Source: Dehalococcoidia bacterium (lineage in GTDB: Bacteria > Chloroflexota > Dehalococcoidia > Lucifugimonadales > UBA3495). Taken from it: DNA of 48,785 nucleotides. The stretch spans positions 1 through 48,785 of the forward strand of contig JAJDXU010000234.1 in the NCBI GenBank assembly GCA_022823105.1. The letters run 5' to 3'. The notes beneath the pieces are model-generated. The model ran no database searches. It had not been told where the DNA came from and worked only from the letters and a program-made list of their open reading frames with translations. Positions 5,175-46,895 of this stretch are shown here, piece by piece. A program made the position numbers and the translations under genes. Positions within the stretch are counted from its first letter, which is position 1. Each line of letters opens with the position of its first letter.

Positions 5175-5900
5175 ATGACCACCAAAACGCCAACATCCGC
5201 GAGCCGCTACCGACTGCCGGACCCGCCCGAACGCCTGCCCGAAGAAATGACCGCCTTCAAGCACTTGACCACCACCGGCAGCGCGTACCTGCTGGTCCAG
5301 CACCTCGGAAATCCGGAAACCACACTGGTCGGCGGCGAGCTTTACATGAGCCCGGTACCGACTACTGACATCACCGGTTTGCGTTTCCCAGATCTGCTGG
5401 TCGCCTTCGGCGTGGACCCGGAAGCGTACTACGAAAGCAACGCATACATCGTCTCGGAACAGGGGAAGCCGCCGGACTTCGTGCTGGAAATCGCGTCCCG
5501 CAGCACGGGCCGAATCGACGTGGTCGACAAGCGCGAGCACTACGCGGACCTGGGCATACCTGAGTACTGGCGCTTTGACGAAACGGGCGAATTCCACGGG
5601 GCGCGGCTGGCCGGCGACCGGCTGATCGATGGCCGGTACGAGGCATTGCCCATCCAGGAACTGCCGGATGGCGTGCTGCAAGGGTACAGCGCAGTCCTGA
5701 ACCTCAACCTCCGCTGGAATAGCGGCCGCCTCGAATGGTACGACCCCGACACCGGACTCCACATCGCCACACTGGAAGATGAACGATCCGCCCGAGTCCA
5801 AGCGGAAGCCCGCGCCACGAGCGCCGAAACCCGAGCTGAGAGCGCCGAAACCCGGGTGCGAGAACTGGAAGAGGAAATCAGGCGCCTCCGCGGTTCATAG
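5175..5900 (+). CDS. Uma2 family endonuclease (DUF820), paralog of 1631..2365
   Basis: PDFVLEIASRSTGRIDVVDKREHYADLGIPEYWRFDETG. Collinear with the first copy over the whole length (roughly two-thirds identity by eye). C-terminal coiled coil ETRVRELEEEIRRLR. Confidence 0.85.
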   Translation: MTTKTPTSASRYRLPDPPERLPEEMTAFKHLTTTGSAYLLVQHLGNPETTLVGGELYMSPVPTTDITGLRFPDLLVAFGVDPEAYYESNAYIVSEQGKPPDFVLEIASRSTGRIDVVDKREHYADLGIPEYWRFDETGEFHGARLAGDRLIDGRYEALPIQELPDGVLQGYSAVLNLNLRWNSGRLEWYDPDTGLHIATLEDERSARVQAEARATSAETRAESAETRVRELEEEIRRLRGS

Positions 5901-7018: not shown

Positions 7019-7185
7019 CCAGGTATCCAGAACTCCTTCTCTCTGGAGCGAGGGGGTTGGAGTGTAAGTAAACCTTGATGGATAGCACTCAATGAAAGTG
7101 CCCATATCGGCATGGCATGCAAATGCAAATGACATGGATAGATGTTTGAACCTTCATCATTCGTGAGCAACGGCGTCGAGCTGTT

Positions 7186-7557
7186 TTGATACAATCACTG
7201 CATGGAGAGTTTACGCAGGTGGCTAACTCAAGACCGTTTGTTGAGGGCGTGGGAGTGATCCTGTACGGTATGACCGCGGTTGCTGTTGATCTGGGAGGTC
7301 AGACGATGTTTTATACGATAGCGGCAATCCTGAATTACGTACATGAAAGGAAGCAGGAACGGAATGCCAATGCAGTCCGTATTGTGAGCGAAAGCACCGA
7401 TTTGACCACTCAGGTGATCCGGGAGAATCCAACTTTGGCAGCCCAGGTTCTCAGGGAAAATCTTACGCTGACACCTCAGATGATCCGAGAGAATCCCGAG
7501 TTGGCAGCTCGGATACTCGAGCAGTTGGATCGCGAATCGACTGGGGAAGCTAAGTAG
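7186..7557 (+). CDS. hypothetical small protein with four 11-aa tandem repeats (start uncertain; best SD favours ATG 7306)
   Basis: Only plausible ORF in a lower-GC gap. GGGAGG lies 7 nt before ATG 7306 (MFYTIAAILNYVHERK...). No family recognised. Confidence 0.35.
   Translation: MIQSLHGEFTQVANSRPFVEGVGVILYGMTAVAVDLGGQTMFYTIAAILNYVHERKQERNANAVRIVSESTDLTTQVIRENPTLAAQVLRENLTLTPQMIRENPELAARILEQLDRESTGEAK
7399..7530 (+). repeat. 33-nt x4 in-frame tandem repeat
   Basis: The four units encode DLTTQVIRENP / TLAAQVLRENL / TLTPQMIRENP / ELAARILEQLD. Confidence 0.7.
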
Positions 7558-7623
7558 CCGCGATCCGTGGTATATGTTGGAAATAGACAGGCAAGGATCT
7601 AAACGCAGGCGGGTGGTTGACCA

Positions 7624-9329: not shown

Positions 9330-9575
9330 ATGAACTCATACCGTTGGACCAAACGCATCGGCCTCGCCGGACTCGCCTTCCTCGCGGCCATCGCCGTATT
9401 CGTGACCGCCGTGAGCATCATGGACGTGCGCGTAGCCGGCGTGTACCCCGAGGCCTTCCGCCTCACCGCCATGATGACTGCCCCATTCACCCTCGGCCTG
9501 GTGGTCGTGACCACGCTGGCAACTGCGCTGGTGGAGACGCTGCGGCGGTTTAGGCGGCGCCCGGCCGGGGCCTGA
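9330..9575 (+). CDS. small membrane protein (2 predicted TM helices)
   Basis: AAGGAGGAG RBS immediately upstream of ATG 9330. Sequence MNSYRWTKRIGLAGLAFLAAIAVFVTAV...FTLGLVVVTTLATALV. The upstream part of tracked ORF 9030.. is Arg/His junk. Confidence 0.45.
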   Translation: MNSYRWTKRIGLAGLAFLAAIAVFVTAVSIMDVRVAGVYPEAFRLTAMMTAPFTLGLVVVTTLATALVETLRRFRRRPAGA

Positions 9576-9612
9576 TGGCGGGCGGTGGCGGCCGCTACGT
9601 AGCACAAATAGG

Positions 9613-9644
9613 TGCAGGCTCCTGAGGGGGCCTGCATTATTTTA
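9613..9644 (+). terminator. intrinsic terminator-like hairpin
   Basis: TGCAGGCTCC-TGAG-GGGGCCTGCA, a 10-bp stem with one G-U pair, followed by TTATTTTAG. It lies 38 nt after the stop at 9575. By eye, G+C drops directly after it. Confidence 0.5.
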
Positions 9645-9897
9645 GTCGATCCCCTCACACGGCGGTTCCATATTTGCATTGTAACATTTTCTCTGACACT
9701 GTCGGATTACAGAGCCAATACCTTCGTACTTGGCTGCACAAACGTCCCCAACATCTCGGTGCCTGATTAGTCATGCCATCGAGTCCGCGACCAGGCCGCA
9801 ACGTTCTGAAAGAAGTGCAATAGAGGCCAATCGCAAGTTGCAGCGGAGAAATCCAAATGATATCGTGAATACTGAGCAAAAAGTGAGAGGAGATAGG

Positions 9898-10983
9898 ATG
9901 CTGACCGTGCAACAGGATAGTGAGTTCCAGGTAGACGACCTTCGGGTGGAGGACACAGAACCCACTGACGACGATGAACTCCAAGATATCCGTTACGAGA
10001 TCTCGACTTTCCCGACTGATTTTACCGTGCGGGTGATGTACGAGAAATGGAAGTCTGGGCAACTCGTCATCCCTGAATATCAGCGGCGCTACGTCTGGAG
10101 TCTACCCCAAGCTAGTCGGTTAATTGAATCGTTCCTATTGGGACTCCCGATCCCTCAAGTTTTCCTTTACCGGGAACACTCTGGTCCAGAACTCTACGTG
10201 GTCGACGGTCATCAACGACTGGCGACTATCGCTCATTTTTATGGTGGCACTTTTTCGGACGATCGCGAGTTCCGATTACGGGGTGTCGGTGCTGCCTGGG
10301 TCGACCGCACTTACGAAGAACTCAGTGAGGACGATAGATTGACCCTTGACGATGCTACATTGCGGTCCATCGTTATCCGACAGATCCAGCCCAGCGACAA
10401 CTCAAGCGTCTACCAGATTTTTGAGCGGCTAAACACCGGCGGCACCCAGCTCAATCCAATGGAGATCCGCAGGGCAATCCATCGTGGGCAAGCAAATGCT
10501 CTCCTGGATAGATTGAATGCAAACCCCGATTGGCGCATTTTGATCGGTCGAACTGAACCGGATCCTCGACTTCGCGATGTTGAAATGCTCCTTCGAGTTT
10601 TGGCCTTAGCTGATAGATGGCGAGAATACAAGAAACCCATGAAAAAATTTATCACTGACCATATGCAAATCCTCGATAAAGCGGACGAGCTTTACATTGC
10701 AGATATTGAACAGCGGTTCGCGGAAGCGTGCGGCCTGGTGAAGAATGCTTTAGGCGAAAAGCCCTTCCATCTCAGGCAAAGAATCAACTTGGCCGCTTTA
10801 GACGCAATCATGGCTTGCGCCGTTGAGCTGGGCGAACTTATGCACCGAAATCTTGCAGATGCGTATGGCGACCTCAAGAACAATTCCGTCTTTATGGAAA
10901 CGGTGACATACAACACCAGCGACGCCTCGGTCGTGCAACAACGAATGGAACTGGTCCACAATGCGGTGGGTTCGAAAATATGA
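9898..10983 (+). CDS. DUF262 domain protein (ParB/Srx-like N-terminal domain as in GmrSD/SspE); no DUF1524 nuclease domain recognised
   Basis: GGAG RBS before ATG 9898 (the tracked TTG start at 9730 adds non-coding-looking sequence). Motifs LVIPEYQRRYVWSLPQASRLIESFLLGLPIP and YVVDGHQRLATI (DGQQR-type), then FERLNTGGTQLNPMEIRRA. Confidence 0.8.
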   Translation: MLTVQQDSEFQVDDLRVEDTEPTDDDELQDIRYEISTFPTDFTVRVMYEKWKSGQLVIPEYQRRYVWSLPQASRLIESFLLGLPIPQVFLYREHSGPELYVVDGHQRLATIAHFYGGTFSDDREFRLRGVGAAWVDRTYEELSEDDRLTLDDATLRSIVIRQIQPSDNSSVYQIFERLNTGGTQLNPMEIRRAIHRGQANALLDRLNANPDWRILIGRTEPDPRLRDVEMLLRVLALADRWREYKKPMKKFITDHMQILDKADELYIADIEQRFAEACGLVKNALGEKPFHLRQRINLAALDAIMACAVELGELMHRNLADAYGDLKNNSVFMETVTYNTSDASVVQQRMELVHNAVGSKI

Positions 10984-11468
10984 CGACGATGTATCTGCCA
11001 CTTACGCAGACCGCGATTGCTGATTGTAGGGAACTAACGGTACAAAACCCGGATATTGACCCCGTCATCGGGGCATATTTAACCCGATACGTGAACGGCC
11101 TGATGTGCGCTGAAATCGAAGCTGTCGTGAGTGATCTGATCAAACGAAGATTGAAAGACGGATGTGCGGACACAGCGACGTCAAATTTTCTTTCATCAAT
11201 TGGTCGTAGCGCGATTAGGAACGCGACCGTATCTGAAATACGGGATAAGATGAAGCTATTCGGGACGGAGTATGCGAATCGATTTGATAATATTATTGAT
11301 AATGCTATTGGAGAATCGGGCCGAGAAAAACTTGGCGTGGCGGTACGTAACAGAAACGATAATGCCCATGACAAACCGGTCGATATCACGTTCAACGAGT
11401 TGGAAGAAGCATTTCAGGTTGCGACCAAAGTAGTAGACGCCGTGAGCAGCACGCTATCCAATCGCTGA
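10980..11468 (+). CDS. small all-helical protein with an Rx4H motif; putative HEPN-domain RNase
   Basis: ATGA overlap with the upstream stop (10980-10983). VAVRNRNDNAHDKP contains R-N-D-N-A-H in the C-terminal third, the expected HEPN helix-4 position. Size of 162 aa fits stand-alone HEPN proteins. Confidence 0.6.
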   Translation: MTTMYLPLTQTAIADCRELTVQNPDIDPVIGAYLTRYVNGLMCAEIEAVVSDLIKRRLKDGCADTATSNFLSSIGRSAIRNATVSEIRDKMKLFGTEYANRFDNIIDNAIGESGREKLGVAVRNRNDNAHDKPVDITFNELEEAFQVATKVVDAVSSTLSNR

Positions 11469-11502
11469 ACCGCGCCCGTGTCAAAGACCACCCGTAGCGG
11501 CA

Positions 11503-11835
11503 TCAACCGTCCATAGCGCGAACGATGTCGTCCTCGGTGAGGCCGTTGCTCTGAAACTCAGCCAGCGCGTCCTCGAATGCCATCGGCTCTGACGGTGTCA
11601 GAACCACACCGTCCGCATGCCGGCGCACCACCATGAACCCCTCAGCCAACATCCGGGATTCCATTTGATGCGGCACTGTGAATTGAGTGCCGGTCTGGGA
11701 GGAAAGCGCCCCGACGTAGGTGCAAACCAGGTACTTTAAGAACTCGTCGGCACCAATGGCACGCTCGGCGCATTGAGCCTTCAACTCGTCGTACGCCCAC
11801 TCCGGAAGATCAAAAGCCTCGACTTGAAACAACAT
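11503..11835 (-). CDS. hypothetical protein
   Basis: AGGAG lies 10 nt upstream of ATG 11835, with TACAAT (-10) at 11871-11866 on the minus strand. Sequence MLFQVEAFDLPEWAYDELKAQCAERAIGADEFLKYL... No family recognised. Confidence 0.45.
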   Translation of the reverse strand: MLFQVEAFDLPEWAYDELKAQCAERAIGADEFLKYLVCTYVGALSSQTGTQFTVPHQMESRMLAEGFMVVRRHADGVVLTPSEPMAFEDALAEFQSNGLTEDDIVRAMDG

Positions 11836-12047
11836 GGCGTCAGGTCTCCTATCGGGTCGATAGCTATTGTACATTAACGCCGATGTCGCCAATTCCATCC
11901 ATGCGGCAAGCCGACGTGACAACAAGCCCTTGACCTACCCCGCGCGGAACATGGACGCCGATATCGTCCGCGGCGACAAGCGCGTTATCGCCCGATGCCG
12001 GCGCGACGTGATCCCGCATCGACGGCCGACCCCATCAAAGTAGAAAC

Positions 12048-12078
12048 GGCAGGGGCGAAAATTGCTTTCGCCCCTGCC
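12048..12078 (-). terminator. 13-bp perfect hairpin of the GGGGCGAA...TTCGCCCC family, downstream of the BNR gene
   Basis: GGCAGGGGCGAAA-ATTGC-TTTCGCCCCTGCC, 45 nt after the stop at 12123. Same stem family as the REP hairpins at 38467, 39659 and 41417. Confidence 0.55.
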
Positions 12079-12122: not shown

Positions 12123-13094
12123 CTAGTTGGGAACCCACACCATTGCGCCCACTTCCGTGAATTCCCGATTCATCTTCTCCCACGAGTCGCCGGCGTCGCT
12201 GCTGGAATACAGCTCACCCATCAGGCTCGACGCCAGAACGAAATCCGGATCGGCCGGGTGGGTGGCGAACTGCCAGATGTTGGAATTGGGCTCCACCGGC
12301 AGCGGCCGTCTCTCCCATGTCTGCCCGCCGTCCCTGGAACGGTGTATGGCGCCGGCGCCGCCGATGGCCGTGTCCCCAACGGCGGAGAAAAGCACGTCGG
12401 GATCGTCGGTTTTGACGGCAATCCCCCGGCTGTAAGGCAGCACGAACTGGTCGGTCGTAACCACCGATTGCCAGCTTTCGCCCATGTCGGTGGTCGCGTA
12501 AATCTCCCGGGGCGTGCTGGCGATCACCCGATTCGGCTCGCCCGGGCTGATGGTCATCCCGTGGATGTCCGGATGTACGCCGCCCTCAACGTGGGTCCAC
12601 GTATCTCCGCCGTCCAGGCTCCGGTACACGCCGTCCACCTCAACGCCGGCCCATACGGTTAGGTGGTCCTTGGGGTCCACTACCAGCATGGTCACCATCG
12701 GCGGCCCGATGTGGCATTCCTGCGCCATCTGCACCGACAGCTTGGTCCAGCTCCCGCCGCCGTCCCGCGACCGGAACAGCGCGGCCGGCTTGATCCCCAC
12801 GAAGATGGTGTCGGTGTCCTCAGGGTCGATGGCAATCGACCAGATCGGCACGCCGTCCATCGGCGACCACAGTTTCTCCCACGTGGCCCCCTTGTCCTCG
12901 CTGCGATATATCCCGTTATCCGCCCCCGCCAGGATGCGGTTTGAGTTATCGGGATACACCGCCATCGCCCGGACCTGGCTGCCCAGCGGGAACGGGTCCC
13001 TGATCCGCGTCCAGCTGTCTCCGCCGTCGGGGCTGTGCCAGACGCCGCCGCCGAACCCCGTCGCGCCTACGCAGATGCTGTAATCCTTACTCAT
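12123..13094 (-). CDS. BNR/Asp-box repeat beta-propeller protein (Ycf48/sialidase-like fold)
   Basis: Seven SxDxGxTW-type Asp boxes: SPDGGDSWTRI, SEDKGATWEKL, SRDGGGSWTKL, SLDGGDTWTHV, TTDMGESWQSV, SRDGGQTWERR, SSDAGDSWEKM. GAGGAGG lies 7 nt before ATG 13094, and the tracked start 13127 would include this RBS. Confidence 0.8.
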   Translation of the reverse strand: MSKDYSICVGATGFGGGVWHSPDGGDSWTRIRDPFPLGSQVRAMAVYPDNSNRILAGADNGIYRSEDKGATWEKLWSPMDGVPIWSIAIDPEDTDTIFVGIKPAALFRSRDGGGSWTKLSVQMAQECHIGPPMVTMLVVDPKDHLTVWAGVEVDGVYRSLDGGDTWTHVEGGVHPDIHGMTISPGEPNRVIASTPREIYATTDMGESWQSVVTTDQFVLPYSRGIAVKTDDPDVLFSAVGDTAIGGAGAIHRSRDGGQTWERRPLPVEPNSNIWQFATHPADPDFVLASSLMGELYSSSDAGDSWEKMNREFTEVGAMVWVPN

Positions 13095-13120
13095 GACAAC
13101 TGCCTCCTCACATGGTGCTT

Positions 13121-13160
13121 GCGTCACTTAGTATTTGCGTCACTTAGTATTTGCGTCACA
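13121..13160. repeat. 16-nt tandem direct repeat x2.5 (GCGTCACTTAGTATTT)
   Basis: Two perfect copies (13121-13136, 13137-13152) plus GCGTCACA. It lies 27-66 nt upstream of the BNR gene start. Confidence 0.7.
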
Positions 13161-31321: not shown

Positions 31322-31651
31322 AGACCGGCACGCTGTGGGCTATCGCCTCACCACAGCCCGAACCCTCCACCTCATCATCCGGCCGGTGGAGTCGGCCAAT
31401 ATAGGTTTTGACACCAATCGCTTTGCTGATGAGCGGGCCCATGGAGGGATGTTTTTTTATCACCGGCGCGTCATCCTGGTATTTGACCAGAAACACCAGT
31501 TCGACGCCCTCGAAAGGCCCGCTGAAATACATTCCCGACTGGCCCCGGGGGATCATACACATTCTTTGATGCCCCATTCGCGGCAGAAGTCGGCGATGTC
31601 GTCTAACGGCAGGTCTTCAAGTCGCACTTTCGCGCCAATATTCGGCTCTGC
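31311..31651 (-). pseudogene. minimal nucleotidyltransferase (MntA-like), frameshifted or fused and with degenerate catalytic motifs
   Basis: The N-terminal helix (VRLEDLPLDDIADFCREWGIKE) is read in the frame of the upstream HEPN ORF. After a 1-nt frame change the sequence continues MIPRGQSGMYFSGPFEGVELVFLVKYQDD...ISKAIGVKTYI...EAIAHSVPVYV. The expected G-S and DxD motifs are replaced (E-L-V where D-x-D is expected). Confidence 0.5.
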
Positions 31652-31984
31652 GCCGGTGACGTGGCGAACCAACTGCGGAGCGTCTTCCTTAACCGCGCGG
31701 GCGATATCGTCCGCGCTGATCCGCTCCGATTGGGTGGCCAGCTTATCCCGCAGATCAACCCACCAGGCCCAGGGGTAGTCAGGGGAAACCTGTTCCAGCC
31801 GTGAGCAGTGCCGCTCAATCGCATTGCCGATCCTGATCAGGCCGTAAGCGGCGGAGTATTGCATCCGCCGTTCCGTTGGCAAGGTTCGCGGGTCGAGCTC
31901 GCTGAGCACGAAAAGGGTTTCCTCGACCGAATTGACTACCGAATCCGGAGCAGCCTGCTGCGCCTCTGTGGGAACATTCAACAT
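31553..31984 (-). CDS. HEPN (DUF86-like) paralog with His-to-Thr substitution in the catalytic motif, C-terminally continuous with the MNT-like N-terminus
   Basis: YGLIRIGNAIERHCSRLEQVSPDYPWAWWVDLRDKLATQSE...APQLVRHVTG is collinear with 30965..31321, but R-D-K-L-A-T replaces RxxxxH. GAGGA RBS before ATG 31984. Confidence 0.6.
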   Translation of the reverse strand: MLNVPTEAQQAAPDSVVNSVEETLFVLSELDPRTLPTERRMQYSAAYGLIRIGNAIERHCSRLEQVSPDYPWAWWVDLRDKLATQSERISADDIARAVKEDAPQLVRHVTGAEPNIGAKVRLEDLPLDDIADFCREWGIKECV

Positions 31985-32091
31985 GATTTCTCTACGTCCT
32001 CGCGACATCAGCGAGAGCGTCAAAGTCAGGCTCCGCCGGGGGTATTCCGGCTTTTTCCGATGATAACATGGCGAATCGTTGACGGTGGTTT

Positions 32092-32709
32092 ATGACTGAC
32101 ACACTCGCCTTTCACCCCCTGACGCCCGAGTTGATGCACGATTTCGGCGCCGTGCTGCGCGGCAACTATGGCGCGGGTTGCTGGTGCATGTTCCCCCGCC
32201 TCACCCGGGCCGAAACCATCGCGCTGCCCGGCGAAGGCTCTATCAGCCCACGCCGCCGCAGGGTGATGACGGAACTGGCGAAGCGAGACCCGGCCCCTGG
32301 GCTGCTGGCCTACGATGGCGACGAGCCCGTGGGATGGATCGCCGTCGCGCCCCGTGGAGAATTGAACCGCGTAGACCGTTCCCGCGCGACCCCCAGGGTG
32401 GACGACGTCGACGTGTGGACCATTCCCTGCGTAACCGTTCGGAAAGATGTGCGCGGTCGCGGCATCGCCGTAGCCCTGATCCGGGAGGCGGTGCGTTATG
32501 CGGCCCAATATGCCGCTCCCGCCGTGGAGGCATACCCGCGTGACGGCTCCGAACGCACCGGCGACGACAACGCCTATTTCGGCACGGAAACCATGTTTCG
32601 CCGAGCCGGGTTCAGGATACTGCGCGGCCCGCTGGAAAACCGGCCACGCAACTGGATCGCCCGCGTGGTGATGCGCCGCACTATCCAACCTGACCCGGCA
32701 GCGCCGTGA
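32092..32709 (+). CDS. GNAT family N-acetyltransferase
   Basis: VGWIAVAPRGE..., then IPCVTVRKDVRGRGIAVALIREAVRYAAQ (the R/Q-x-x-G-x-G/A acetyl-CoA motif), then FRRAGF. Confidence 0.8.
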   Translation: MTDTLAFHPLTPELMHDFGAVLRGNYGAGCWCMFPRLTRAETIALPGEGSISPRRRRVMTELAKRDPAPGLLAYDGDEPVGWIAVAPRGELNRVDRSRATPRVDDVDVWTIPCVTVRKDVRGRGIAVALIREAVRYAAQYAAPAVEAYPRDGSERTGDDNAYFGTETMFRRAGFRILRGPLENRPRNWIARVVMRRTIQPDPAAP

Positions 32710-33067
32710 CCAGGACACGCTCCAGGTTATCGGCCAGCAGCAGGGCTTGAACGCGACGCTGGCGCAGTTGCTCGGGAGTCAGGTTGCCGTTATAGAAGTG
32801 GCCGTGCAGGCTGCCTGCCCAGGACCAAGATTCATAAATGTAGCGTGTGCTCGGGTTCCCCGCGAACAGTCGATGCGCCAAGTTGCGGCGTTCGGAAAGG
32901 TTGGTGTCGGCATCGTTTTGCCGCTCGTGTTTCAGAACGGCGCTCGCGAGGTGGTTGACCACGCCCCACAACGCTTCGGCGGCCAAATGAACCCGTCCGC
33001 CGTCCCATAGGTCGCTACTGTCGGCGCGAAGTTGGCGCGCCAGCGCCAAATGCTCATCAGGGTTCAT
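32681..33067 (-). CDS. PaREP1-like small helical protein
   Basis: LAAEALWGVVNHLASAVL...ERRNLAHRL...AGSLHGHFYNGNLTPEQL parallels the reconstructed 1145-1503 product (EKGWGATAQMLKAI...AQNLHVNFYEDNLSPEF). Confidence 0.55.
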   Translation of the reverse strand: MNPDEHLALARQLRADSSDLWDGGRVHLAAEALWGVVNHLASAVLKHERQNDADTNLSERRNLAHRLFAGNPSTRYIYESWSWAGSLHGHFYNGNLTPEQLRQRRVQALLLADNLERVLVTALPGQVG

Positions 33068-33446
33068 GCTGTTTTTTGCCCGCGCCGGCCATCAGGGCAT
33101 CGACCAACTGTATCACCGAAGGATAGCACTGCGCCGGCTCTTCGTCGTCCAGCATATGCAAGCGCATATTTTCTTCCATGTACTCGGCCACGCCCAGCTT
33201 GATCAAATACAGCCGTTTGTCGTTGCCGTCTTCCTGGTCAAGGATATCGGCAATCCGCCAGCGGTCCTCTACGGTGTCGGAGGGCATGCCTCGGGCCTTG
33301 CCAAAAACCTTCAGCGCCTGCTCGGTAGCATTCCATAGCAGTTCCGAAATCAGCAGGCCGTTGCCGATTCGCAACGCCAGTTCGGCCTGGTGCAGGTATT
33401 TCTGCACGTTGGCAGCGTGTTGGTCTTTGGTCGTCGCGGCAGTCAT
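33057..33446 (-). CDS. PaREP1-like small helical protein (more divergent), coupled to 32681..33067 by an 11-nt overlap
   Basis: ISELLWNATEQALKVFGKARGMP...WRIADIL...EENMRLHMLDDEEP shows the same helix pattern but lacks the FY motif. Confidence 0.45.
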   Translation of the reverse strand: MTAATTKDQHAANVQKYLHQAELALRIGNGLLISELLWNATEQALKVFGKARGMPSDTVEDRWRIADILDQEDGNDKRLYLIKLGVAEYMEENMRLHMLDDEEPAQCYPSVIQLVDALMAGAGKKQHEP

Positions 33447-45591: not shown

Positions 45592-46416
45592 TCACGGCCA
45601 GCGAGCGTTTGACCACAGTGCATTGACCACTGCGCTCAAAAACTCCTCACGATGATGGATTTGGAAAACTGTCAATGGAGGAAATCTCATCGCATTGTAG
45701 AGTTTGAGGGGGAACTCCGTGCTATTCAGCGGCCGTTTTGCCCAATCGACTTGACGGCGGTGCGGGAACGGGCAGCCATCGTCCGGCTCCGGCTGGTAGT
45801 ACACGCCGGATTCAACACGGCCATATTGTAGTAAGGTATATTCCTTGGTTGGCGTAATGATGTAGTCGCCAGGCTTGATCCCCGACAAAAATCGAAGGAT
45901 TTGCCCCACGTTGGTTGCAACCCTGGCGTCGCCATCCTGAGGGTAGGCCATTTTATACAGGCATCTCAGCGCCTCTTTGTCCGTTACTTCAGTAAGGTCC
46001 GAGCCAGGTATCCAGCCGATCCCAGCATACCCACCGGCTACAAAACTATCGGTGTACTTGCCTTTCTCAGCGCCAACGCGCCAGATGTTGGGTGCTTCGT
46101 TTGCCCTTTTGTGATTGGTCGGCTGCGTCCGGTCGATGCTCCAGTTGGTCAGGTCACCGAACACGTCCATCTGCGACCTGTCCTCGGCTTCGGCCAGCGT
46201 CGTGATTGCTTCAGCCACGCTTTCGGCGTAGAGGAGGCCTCCAGCCTCAATCGGGACGGCAATTCCCCACATCCTGCCACGCTCTTCCTTACTGAAGATG
46301 GTGGCCCATGTTCCCCATGGGCGTTCGTCGCCCCATCCGTGCGCTTCCAGGTATGCCCGCAGGTTCGCAATTGCCAGGGACTCCATCGCCTCTTTGTCCC
46401 TAATTTGTACCTTCAT
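45592..46416 (-). CDS. two-domain protein: unassigned N-terminal domain plus PUA/EVE-like C-terminal domain (tentative)
   Basis: ATGA overlap with the upstream gene. The C-terminal half is NIWRVGAEKGKYTDSFVAGGYAGIGWIPGSDLTEV...IKPGDYIITPTKEYTLLQYGRVESGVYY...PHRRQVDWAKRPL...LTVFQI. This pattern recalls N-terminal reader domains of Mrr/McrB-type restriction proteins; that assignment is from memory and unverified. Confidence 0.55.
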   Translation of the reverse strand: MKVQIRDKEAMESLAIANLRAYLEAHGWGDERPWGTWATIFSKEERGRMWGIAVPIEAGGLLYAESVAEAITTLAEAEDRSQMDVFGDLTNWSIDRTQPTNHKRANEAPNIWRVGAEKGKYTDSFVAGGYAGIGWIPGSDLTEVTDKEALRCLYKMAYPQDGDARVATNVGQILRFLSGIKPGDYIITPTKEYTLLQYGRVESGVYYQPEPDDGCPFPHRRQVDWAKRPLNSTEFPLKLYNAMRFPPLTVFQIHHREEFLSAVVNALWSNARWP

Positions 46417-46895
46417 AATGTTTCACCCTTCGCCACCTTGTCCATCATGTCGGTTAACTGCGCACTGCTGAATACGTTGGCCGTCGGAATACGAACCGTC
46501 ACGCTGTTGCGGTTGGGTACAGGATGGTGTCCCACCGAGGAGAGCCAGTAGCCGCAGTGGCGTAAGCAAAGTTTGTCATCATTTTGTGTCAACCATTCGG
46601 TTTGGTCGTCCGGCAGTAGGACAACGATAAGGATGAAAGGATGCTTTTCCACACGAAGGTTATCGTAATCGCGCATAAGCAGGGGAAAATGTACTGCATG
46701 GCCGTCGCTGCTCATAACGCCCCGCGACGTGGACTTGGCCTGGAACCCGATGGTTTCTGAGATTCTAGCCCTTTTCAGAATCCCATCCACGCTTCTCCGA
46801 TCCACCTTCGGTTCTATCACCTCGCAATCTGCATGGGTTGCCACCGCGTTGATGTACGCCAGCGAAAATCTCTCCTTTTTCGTATTAGGATCCAT
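46413..46895 (-). CDS. DUF4365-like protein (PD-(D/E)xK restriction-endonuclease fold)
   Basis: ERFSLAYINAVATHADCEVIEPKVDRRSVDGIL....IGFQAKSTS gives the D...Q-x-K arrangement typical of DUF4365. 160 aa. The region is lower in GC by eye. Confidence 0.6.
   Translation of the reverse strand: MDPNTKKERFSLAYINAVATHADCEVIEPKVDRRSVDGILKRARISETIGFQAKSTSRGVMSSDGHAVHFPLLMRDYDNLRVEKHPFILIVVLLPDDQTEWLTQNDDKLCLRHCGYWLSSVGHHPVPNRNSVTVRIPTANVFSSAQLTDMMDKVAKGETL

Follow-up and report, generated by a model that had tools for sequence, protein, structure and literature searches.

What does a DUF262 protein do when it carries no DUF1524 nuclease and is translationally coupled to a small HEPN protein? The question is raised by a contig from a Dehalococcoidia bacterium (Chloroflexota; GenBank assembly GCA_022823105.1, contig JAJDXU010000234.1), of which we analyzed positions 1–48,785 of the forward strand. 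This whole stretch of 48,785 nucleotides is the window, and our subject is a two-gene cassette within it at about 9645–11468. A first-pass annotation, made by a model from the sequence alone, had described the two genes as a GmrSD-like sensor with an RNase-type partner in place of DUF1524. We find the pair to be a diverged Chloroflexota member of the PD-T4-2 class, whose architecture is itself already known. The cassette as a whole probably arrived by horizontal transfer and probably serves as a functional anti-phage system of two genes, of the PD-T4-2 type.

Domains and operon of the DUF262–HEPN pair

Gene 1 encodes a DUF262 protein of the ParB/Srx fold, whose motifs are intact and which has an NsnA-type C-terminal domain and no nuclease domain. 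Pfam GmrSD_N/DUF262 (PF03235) covers residues 52–195 (E = 1.8e-27), and each of the three motifs that define DUF262, QRxxxW, DGxQR and FxxxN (PMC12065111), is present with residues that are invariant across homologs (Table 1). The DGHQR motif is the predicted nucleoside triphosphate (NTP)-binding center. A Pfam search for DUF1524 (PF07510) returned no match in gene 1 even at E ≤ 1. Among the PADLOC models, NsnA of the Menshen system (NsnABC) matched gene 1 at 3.9e-61 over profile positions 34–379 of 385, and PD-T4-2_A matched at 1.6e-40 over positions 47–356 of 363. We place the start at the ATG at 9898, which has GGAG upstream and is favored over a TTG at 9730 by homolog lengths of 347–361 aa.

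Structure prediction agrees with this domain layout. The AlphaFold2 model of gene 1 (predicted local distance difference test, pLDDT, 83) consists of a disordered acidic tail at residues 1–30, an alpha/beta domain and an all-helical domain that runs to residue 361. Foldseek ranked the GmrSD-family enzyme BrxU on top (probability 1.0), with SspE, ParB/Noc and sulfiredoxin next. The helical C-terminal half corresponds to the ParBDB domain of the Menshen paper, which inferred DNA binding by ParBDB from the experimentally required SspE-M domain.

Gene 2 is assigned by its sequence to the RiboL-PSP family of HEPN proteins, with an invariant Rx4H dyad, and is predicted to be an RNase effector. It scores 37.9 bits against PF18735 (HEPN_RiboL-PSP), above the Pfam curated cutoff of 28.4, and all 29 of its close relatives match the same family. 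Searching 1.84 billion cluster representatives with a HMMER profile recovered 429 relatives at E ≤ 1e-3, and 129 of these relatives form our broad alignment. R125 and H130 are invariant in the 29 close relatives and are the only invariant columns among the 129 sequences, where mean column identity is 24%. The AlphaFold2 model of gene 2 (pLDDT 85, predicted template modeling score 0.82) is all-helical and places the R125/H130 motif between the last two long helices (111–122 and 138–159). NCBIfam gave no match for the proteins of gene 1, gene 2 or the convergent gene 3 described below, PHROGs gave none for gene 2 or gene 3, and tblastn of gene 2 against phage and plasmid collections also found no match.

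Gene 2 homologs sit directly behind gene 1 homologs wherever we reached them. Searching with gene 2 led to nine distinct loci, eight in reference genomes (all metagenome-assembled genomes of Dehalococcoidia/Chloroflexota) plus L013, the closest relative of the window locus, and a gene 1 homolog lies immediately upstream in all nine. Loci reached through gene 1 hold an intact HEPN gene in two of three cases. The junction is tight in the 11 other intact loci without exception, the two genes either overlapping in ATGA or GTGA or lying 1–7 nt apart. Between the window and L013, gene 1 has a dN/dS of 0.034 and gene 2 one of 0.049, so both genes are maintained under strong purifying selection. Identity across the same loci is 55–70% for gene 1 and 44–56% for gene 2.

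Two loci capture decay states of the system. A frameshift splits the DUF262 gene of L012 (4981–5981) into two frames and leaves the HEPN gene intact, whereas L020 (4001–6243) has lost the HEPN gene, its DUF262 gene bordering an insertion sequence with an rve transposase. No locus shows a HEPN gene without a DUF262 gene (9/9 loci), and the DUF262 gene outlives its partner in L020, a pattern that fits a toxic effector restrained by its partner.

Public gene calls omit or shorten the HEPN gene at L017–L019 (5062–5544) and at L021 (5067–5549). At these loci tblastn finds it intact from the stop codon of the DUF262 gene. Protein-database searches therefore under-count the family of gene 2. An Uma2 gene flanks the pair in L017–L019.

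Two candidates were rejected. P0228, a protein of 503 aa, resembled a DUF262–HEPN fusion; its similarity to gene 1 is lost across motif III in a frameshift-like manner. An RNA antitoxin in the 250-nt leader, as in type III toxin–antitoxin (TA) or AbiF-like systems, was dismissed for want of tandem repeats or an Rfam match. The leader folds no better than shuffled sequences (z = −0.7).

These results uphold the domain calls and the architecture of the first-pass annotation, a DUF262 protein lacking DUF1524 whose gene is translationally coupled to that of a small Rx4H HEPN protein. The stretches IPEYQRRYVW and VVDGHQRLATI that it read in gene 1 are present as described, gene 2 (10980–11468) does overlap gene 1 by ATGA, and the R-N-D-N-A-H that it picked out in the small, all-helical gene 2 contains the arginine and histidine that are invariant in both the 29 and the 129 relatives. 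Its view that gene 1 has no DUF1524-like C-terminus agrees with the empty PF07510 search and the all-helical end of the model. The neighborhood survey that it proposed found the pair adjacent in 9/9 loci via gene 2 and 2/3 via gene 1. It had also named three findings that would speak against its reading, namely a gene 2 that failed to model as HEPN or to conserve its R and H, a lack of synteny, and a DUF1524 domain hidden in gene 1; none of the three came out against it, and on the fold the comparison stopped short of a positive result, with no significant HEPN structure matched.

Kinship with PD-T4-2 and other DUF262 systems

PD-T4-2 is an experimentally validated homolog of the pair. It was described as "DUF262, HEPN", two open reading frames in 1,540 bp of E. 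coli ECOR65; it protects from T4 when cloned, and its deletion from the native strain greatly increases T4 plaquing (Vassallo et al. 2022). HHpred in the same study assigned PD-T4-2A to PF03235 (99.7%) and PD-T4-2B to PF18735 HEPN_RiboL-PSP (97.8%, residues 23–162). The plasmid table lists PD-T4-2B H127A, and the four systems with point mutations reportedly no longer protect (Vassallo et al. 2022).

The window pair resembles PD-T4-2 in layout, sensor and effector motif. Both systems are co-oriented, A then B, with near-identical spacing and with proteins of 364 + 167 aa in PD-T4-2 and 361 + 162 aa here. Gene 1 aligns end to end with PD-T4-2A (BLASTP, 27% identity over 349 aa, E = 8e-30), and both proteins have an acidic N-terminus. 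The two B proteins have in common their Pfam family, their length (162 versus 167 aa), their gene position and the motif R-N-x-x-A-H, in which R125–H130 of gene 2 is matched by motif pattern to R122–H127 (RNAAAH) of PD-T4-2B. Mobile or foreign DNA carries both systems. They differ in host, Enterobacteria versus Chloroflexota, and in setting, a P4-satellite hotspot versus a chromosomal TA locus for the window copy.

The E. coli system is itself mobile and sparsely distributed. Using the published deletion primer, we located PD-T4-2 in 17 of 5,426 complete E. coli genomes. In E. coli 2009C-3133 (NZ_CP013025) it belongs to a P4-like satellite, where it has psu on one side and the integrase on the other and is next to ssrA. 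The two genes lie 4 nt apart there, and RefSeq names them "DUF262 domain-containing protein" and "HEPN domain-containing protein".

Phage-borne pairs form a bridge between the two systems. In Akkermansia phage Chambord and in the P2-like coliphage P2_4B2, an NsnA/PD-T4-2_A-like gene precedes a small gene, whose motif is RNLLVH or RNDLAH. A hidden Markov model (HMM) of the gene 2 family matches the Chambord partner at 4e-9 (6e-9 against a slightly larger set), and the PADLOC PD-T4-2_B model matches it at 4e-4; PADLOC did not recognize the 239-aa partner of P2_4B2. The genes of both loci (L022, Peduovirus P24B2, NC_049387, 30104–31979; L023, Chambord, ON453894, 5262–6964) are annotated as hypothetical proteins. 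Each pair adjoins a DNA methyltransferase gene, in Chambord directly after it.

These comparisons revise the view of how well such pairs have been studied. The first-pass annotation knew of no experimental characterization, which PD-T4-2 provides through its validation against T4, native deletion included. Its remark that HEPN families have been noted beside ParB-like genes in surveys agrees with the literature, where the entry "operon with ParB" is given for the Ribo L-PSP-HEPN family, together with a conserved Rx4-6H and distant kinship to AbiD/AbiF (Anantharaman et al. 2013). Gene 2 and its 29 close relatives match this family (PF18735), with the difference that gene 2 is the stand-alone, ParB-operon form and has no endoribonuclease L-PSP fusion.

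Other known systems share parts of this design. GmrSD, BrxU and SspE have in common with gene 1 the DUF262 fold, the three motifs and a helical domain after DUF262. In those enzymes DUF262 is the NTPase/sensor and DUF1524 cleaves, whereas gene 1 has no DUF1524 His-Me nuclease and its effector is a separate RNase-type protein, not a fused DNase; the pair does not belong with them because DUF1524 is missing. PD-lambda-5 is a validated defense system that also joins ParB-like and HEPN modules, but its domains are fused in one protein, its partner is a methyltransferase, and its ParB is a ParBc with a weak DUF262 score.

Menshen resembles the pair on the sensor side. Gene 1 fits NsnA (ParB-DUF262 plus ParBDB) along its full length, and the predicted logic, a DUF262 sensor with an RNA-targeting effector, is similar. 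Menshen differs in relaying its signal through NsnB, an ABC-type ATPase transducer, to NsnC, an inPIN-nuclease effector, both of which are absent here, where sensor and HEPN protein are directly coupled. We found neither NsnB nor NsnC, nor any ATPase or third gene of the module, in the window or in 12 related loci. The absence of NsnB and NsnC at every locus excludes membership in Menshen, and the Menshen paper itself sets PD-T4-2 loci apart.

Boundaries of the cassette and its insertion site

The cassette stands out from the window by composition. G+C in 300-nt windows falls from 0.62–0.70 to 0.47–0.55 just past 9600 and recovers after about 11500. Over the cassette it is 0.498, against 0.633 in the remainder of the window, which puts 9645–11468 at the bottom of all 1824-nt stretches (mean 0.628, standard deviation 0.032, z about −4). 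G+C at third codon positions (GC3) is 0.56 in gene 1 and 0.49 in gene 2, compared with 0.84–0.88 in adjacent genes and 0.70 in gene 3.

Comparison with a cassette-free relative sets both edges. L014 shares the neighborhood of the window, with a GMC oxidoreductase at 89–94% identity, a small membrane-protein gene at 76–85% and gene 3 at 72%. Base-level homology to L014 ends at about 9645, just past the terminator of the small membrane-protein gene, and restarts exactly at the stop codon of gene 2. The foreign segment therefore ends at 11468 and not at 12078. The hairpin at 9611–9638 is kept in the window, L013 and L014; it is host DNA that marks the left insertion edge and lies outside the cassette. 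The hairpin at 12048–12078, found 45 nt past the end of the minus-strand BNR/sortilin gene and with its T-rich run on the same strand, is the terminator of that gene rather than an islet boundary. We rejected its identity as a repetitive extragenic palindromic (REP) element, as the hairpin occurs once in the window. A search at the cassette for flanking direct or inverted repeats, an integrase or a tRNA that could explain the insertion found none. Within the leader, the only stretch well conserved between the window and L013 (9830–9866) suggests a weak promoter-like arrangement; a sigma-70 scan did not flag it.

The cassette occupies a spot whose cargo varies. Between the small membrane-protein gene and gene 3, the window (9330–11835) and L013 hold DUF262 + HEPN, L014 (5001–7162) holds PIN_3 plus a PLD-family nuclease with weak DrmC/MkoB-like matches, and L015 and L016 (5001–6982) hold PIN_3 plus a 178-aa gene without assigned function. 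In L014–L016 (5001–5764) a 143-aa PIN_3 gene comes after the gene 3 homolog, its start codon overlapping the stop codon of that homolog, a layout like that of a VapBC antitoxin–toxin pair; its position suggests the antitoxin role of gene 3, for which Pfam and PADLOC gave no match. The interval thus acts as a variable-cargo spot between the small membrane-protein gene and a VapBC-like pair. Flanks of the DUF262–HEPN pair differ from genome to genome elsewhere, and in L001 it adjoins an MmeI-like methyltransferase and an SNF2/PLD helicase.

A relic records the replacement. Its sequence, MPLRVVFDTGAV, aligns with MPLRVIFDTSVV, the start of the PIN_3 gene in L014 and L015, and homology breaks at the stop codon of gene 2. 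Because this 12-codon relic ends there, we conclude that the cassette replaced the PIN toxin and left gene 3 an orphan. Gene 3 is convergent to the HEPN gene, 35 nt away, and no terminator was detected between them. It remains under purifying selection, and we read its dN/dS of 0.16 as no higher than the 0.13–0.14 of PIN-paired copies. DUF262–HEPN loci other than the window and L013 lack gene 3, which is not part of the module.

The first-pass annotation was right that G+C drops just after a terminator hairpin, which we place at 9611–9638. Its right boundary moves inward, since the low-G+C segment that it extended to the hairpin at 12048–12078 stops at 11468 by homology to L014, and the hairpin that it called REP-type is the single-copy terminator of the BNR gene. 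The islet accordingly holds two genes and not three. Gene 3, which it left open as a possible member of the module, lies outside the cassette, comes from a separate, older VapBC-like module, is absent from other pair loci except L013 and is paired with PIN elsewhere.

Table 1. Features of the cassette and its surroundings (window coordinates)
Feature	Position	Strand	Basis or detail
Terminator-like hairpin and T-run of the upstream small membrane-protein gene	9611–9638	+	12-bp stem, then ATTTTAG
Two-gene cassette (leader, gene 1, gene 2)	9645–11468	+	Composition; edges from comparison with L014, L015 and L013
Conserved block upstream of gene 1	9830–9866	+	TTGCAG, 17 nt, TATCGT; window versus L013
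Gene 1, 361 aa, ParB-like DUF262 + helical NsnA-C/ParBDB-type domain	9898–10983	+	Pfam, PADLOC, AlphaFold2
DUF262 motif I, QRxxxW (QRRYVW, Q62–W67)	10081–10098	+	Q62, R63, W67 invariant in 31 homologs
DUF262 motif II, DGxQR (DGHQR, D103–R107)	10204–10218	+	D103, G104, Q106, R107 invariant in 31 homologs
DUF262 motif III, FxxxN (FERLN, F175–N179)	10420–10434	+	F175, R177, L178, N179 invariant in 31 homologs
ATGA stop/start overlap of gene 1 and gene 2	10980–10983	+	Read in the sequence
Gene 2, 162 aa, all-helical HEPN_RiboL-PSP protein, predicted RNase effector	10980–11468	+	PF18735
Rx4H catalytic motif codons (R125-N-D-N-A-H130)	11352–11369	+	Invariance of R125 and H130
PIN_3 toxin gene relic, first 12 codons (MPLRVVFDTGAV)	11469–11503	-	Aligns to PIN_3 starts in L014 and L015
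Gene 3, 110 aa, antitoxin-like (by position), orphaned	11503–11835	-	Homologs 71–81% identical
Intrinsic-terminator-like hairpin of the BNR/sortilin gene (12123–13127)	12048–12078	-	Stem of 13 bp (perfect) to 14 bp, T-rich tail

Other parts of the window hold small modules of their own. A second lower-G+C islet at 45592–46895 (minus strand) comprises two genes that overlap by 4 nt, with GC3 of 0.61–0.64. Its upstream gene encodes a 160-aa DUF4365 protein that matches the PADLOC candidate PDC-M02A at full length (4.4e-45). The downstream gene product, of 274 aa, looks chimeric; its residues 1–96 are similar to the PDC-M02B N-terminus (1.5e-18), its residues 110–265 to PDC-S02 (1.8e-50). Three small genes at 31553–33446 (minus strand) include one with a PaREP1 match (6.6e-7), a family that we take to be HEPN-related, and one with a sub-threshold HepT-like match (9.7e-5); this cluster may be another small HEPN/TA-type module. 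Paralogous Uma2 genes, putatively restriction-endonuclease-like, lie within 3 kb of each other at 1631–2365 and 5175–5900 (plus strand). A short low-G+C stretch (0.47–0.51) at 7050–7560, upstream of the GMC oxidoreductase, contains a 123-aa open reading frame (7186–7557, GC3 0.55) for which neither Pfam nor PADLOC gave a match.

Proposed function, rival explanations and significance

The reading that we favor, a functional PD-T4-2-type system, suggests how the pair would work. Our confidence attaches to this reading overall, and we hold the individual mechanistic steps with less. In GmrSD, BrxU and SspE, DUF262 serves as an NTP-dependent sensor that detects phage or modified DNA, and HEPN enzymes are metal-independent endoRNases that work as dimers. 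By analogy with GmrSD, BrxU and SspE, the C-terminal domain of gene 1 would bind DNA; on meeting an infection-specific DNA cue, the protein would switch state through NTP binding or hydrolysis, and this switch would release or activate the co-translated HEPN partner. The active HEPN protein might then cut tRNA, mRNA or rRNA, stopping translation and blocking phage production, with growth arrest or abortive infection as the likely outcome. Mobility is supported by the relatives that two phages carry, a P2-like coliphage and an Akkermansia phage, and by those in a P4-like satellite hotspot. On landing in the variable-cargo spot, the cassette deleted the PIN toxin and spared the antitoxin-like gene 3.

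Several observations weigh against this reading, and most of them concern gene 2. Foldseek found no significant match for its model in the PDB and BFVD (best E 0.66), and the HEPN structures 1jog and 1ylm were matched only weakly (template modeling score 0.37–0.45, E > 6). Roquin was another weak Foldseek match, and the gene 2 profile retrieved nothing meaningful from PDB sequences. With no significant structural match, the HEPN assignment rests on the PF18735 score and motif; of the check on gene 2 proposed by the first-pass annotation, the Pfam half came out in favor and the structural half produced no significant HEPN hit. Similarity of gene 2 to PD-T4-2B is slight (BLASTP E 0.05, hhalign probability 5–9%, 7–11 bits by HMM), below what counts as detectable homology, and the PADLOC PD-T4-2_B model misses gene 2 and matches 0 of its 129 relatives at E ≤ 1e-3. 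The same model reached E 0.037 in 2 of the 29 close relatives. Automated tools would not call the system because this model misses the gene 2 subfamily, and the PADLOC comparison that had been suggested accordingly succeeded for gene 1, through NsnA and PD-T4-2_A, and failed for gene 2. The remaining contrary points concern context and precedent. The immediate neighbors in the window are metabolic genes rather than a defense island, the phage-protection data belong to the E. coli system, and we found no mechanistic study of PD-T4-2 in the literature.

Alternative explanations account for parts of these data. The pair could be a TA-like addiction module, in which a constitutively active HEPN toxin is neutralized by the DUF262 protein and stabilizes the DNA that carries it, with no dedicated phage sensing. 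The tight two-gene operon with its stop/start overlap fits, as does the pattern of loss that a toxin and its neutralizer would show, the HEPN gene never occurring without DUF262 (9/9 loci) and DUF262 persisting alone in L020, and the cassette is itself inserted in a TA locus. We nevertheless regard this as unlikely, since NTP-binding motifs and a DNA-binding-type C-terminal domain would be superfluous in a simple antitoxin and the homologous E. coli system protects from phage; many TA-like systems are moreover abortive-infection defenses, so that the two readings overlap. More doubtful still is a dual-nuclease, restriction-like system in which the DUF262 protein would itself cleave phage DNA, with the HEPN protein assisting as an RNA-binding or RNase subunit. 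ParB-like domains in such operons have been regarded as endoDNases of restriction-modification-type systems (Anantharaman et al. 2013), DNA methyltransferases adjoin the relatives in Chambord, P2_4B2 and L001, and the validated ParB/HEPN protein PD-lambda-5 is paired with a methyltransferase. No methyltransferase adjoins the pair in the window or at most loci, however; DUF262 is the NTPase/sensor in GmrSD, BrxU and SspE, where DUF1524 performs the cleavage; and the mutation made in PD-T4-2 hit the HEPN histidine, the point-mutated systems being reportedly unprotective.

Two further explanations have little in their favor. A housekeeping role, for example DndB-like regulation through DNA binding combined with RNA processing by the HEPN protein, would suit the metabolic genes that neighbor the cassette in the window. 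It strikes us as very improbable given the foreign composition, patchy distribution and different flanks in each genome, the carriage of the pair by phages and satellites, the alternative cargo (PIN plus PLD nuclease) at the same chromosomal spot and the existence of an experimentally validated defense homolog. We give almost no credence to a degenerate or minimal Menshen system, an orphan NsnA that lost NsnB and NsnC and gained an unrelated small gene. NsnA is the best PADLOC match of gene 1, above PD-T4-2_A, but it outranks PD-T4-2_A for the phage-borne DUF262–HEPN pairs too, which indicates that the NsnA model is simply broader. NsnB and NsnC are missing from the window and all 12 related loci, the small gene is conserved as a partner and under selection, and the Menshen paper keeps PD-T4-2 separate.

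A bolder extension of the PD-T4-2-type reading deserves mention as a long shot. The Chloroflexota HEPN partners, 429 cluster representatives that PADLOC does not see and that do not align with PD-T4-2B, might form a distinct effector lineage on an NsnA-type sensor, with another RNA target or mode of activation. DUF262/ParBDB would then be a chassis with swappable effectors, among them HEPN subfamilies, NsnBC and DUF1524, and gene 3 might have taken on a role in modulating the new toxin, in which case a TA remnant would be tied to a defense effector.

Placing the pair in the PD-T4-2 class changes what it means. An apparent GmrSD-with-RNase design moves into a validated class, and that class is extended to Chloroflexota and Dehalococcoidia, where to our knowledge almost nothing is known about phage defense. 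Such systems are under-counted because defense models recognize the sensor and not the fast-evolving HEPN partner. The R and H of the 129 HEPN partners, the three invariant DUF262 motifs and the phage- and satellite-borne relatives offer targets for mutagenesis. At the insertion site, a PIN toxin replaced while its antitoxin-like gene was kept provides a clean natural case of cargo turnover at a small TA/defense hotspot.

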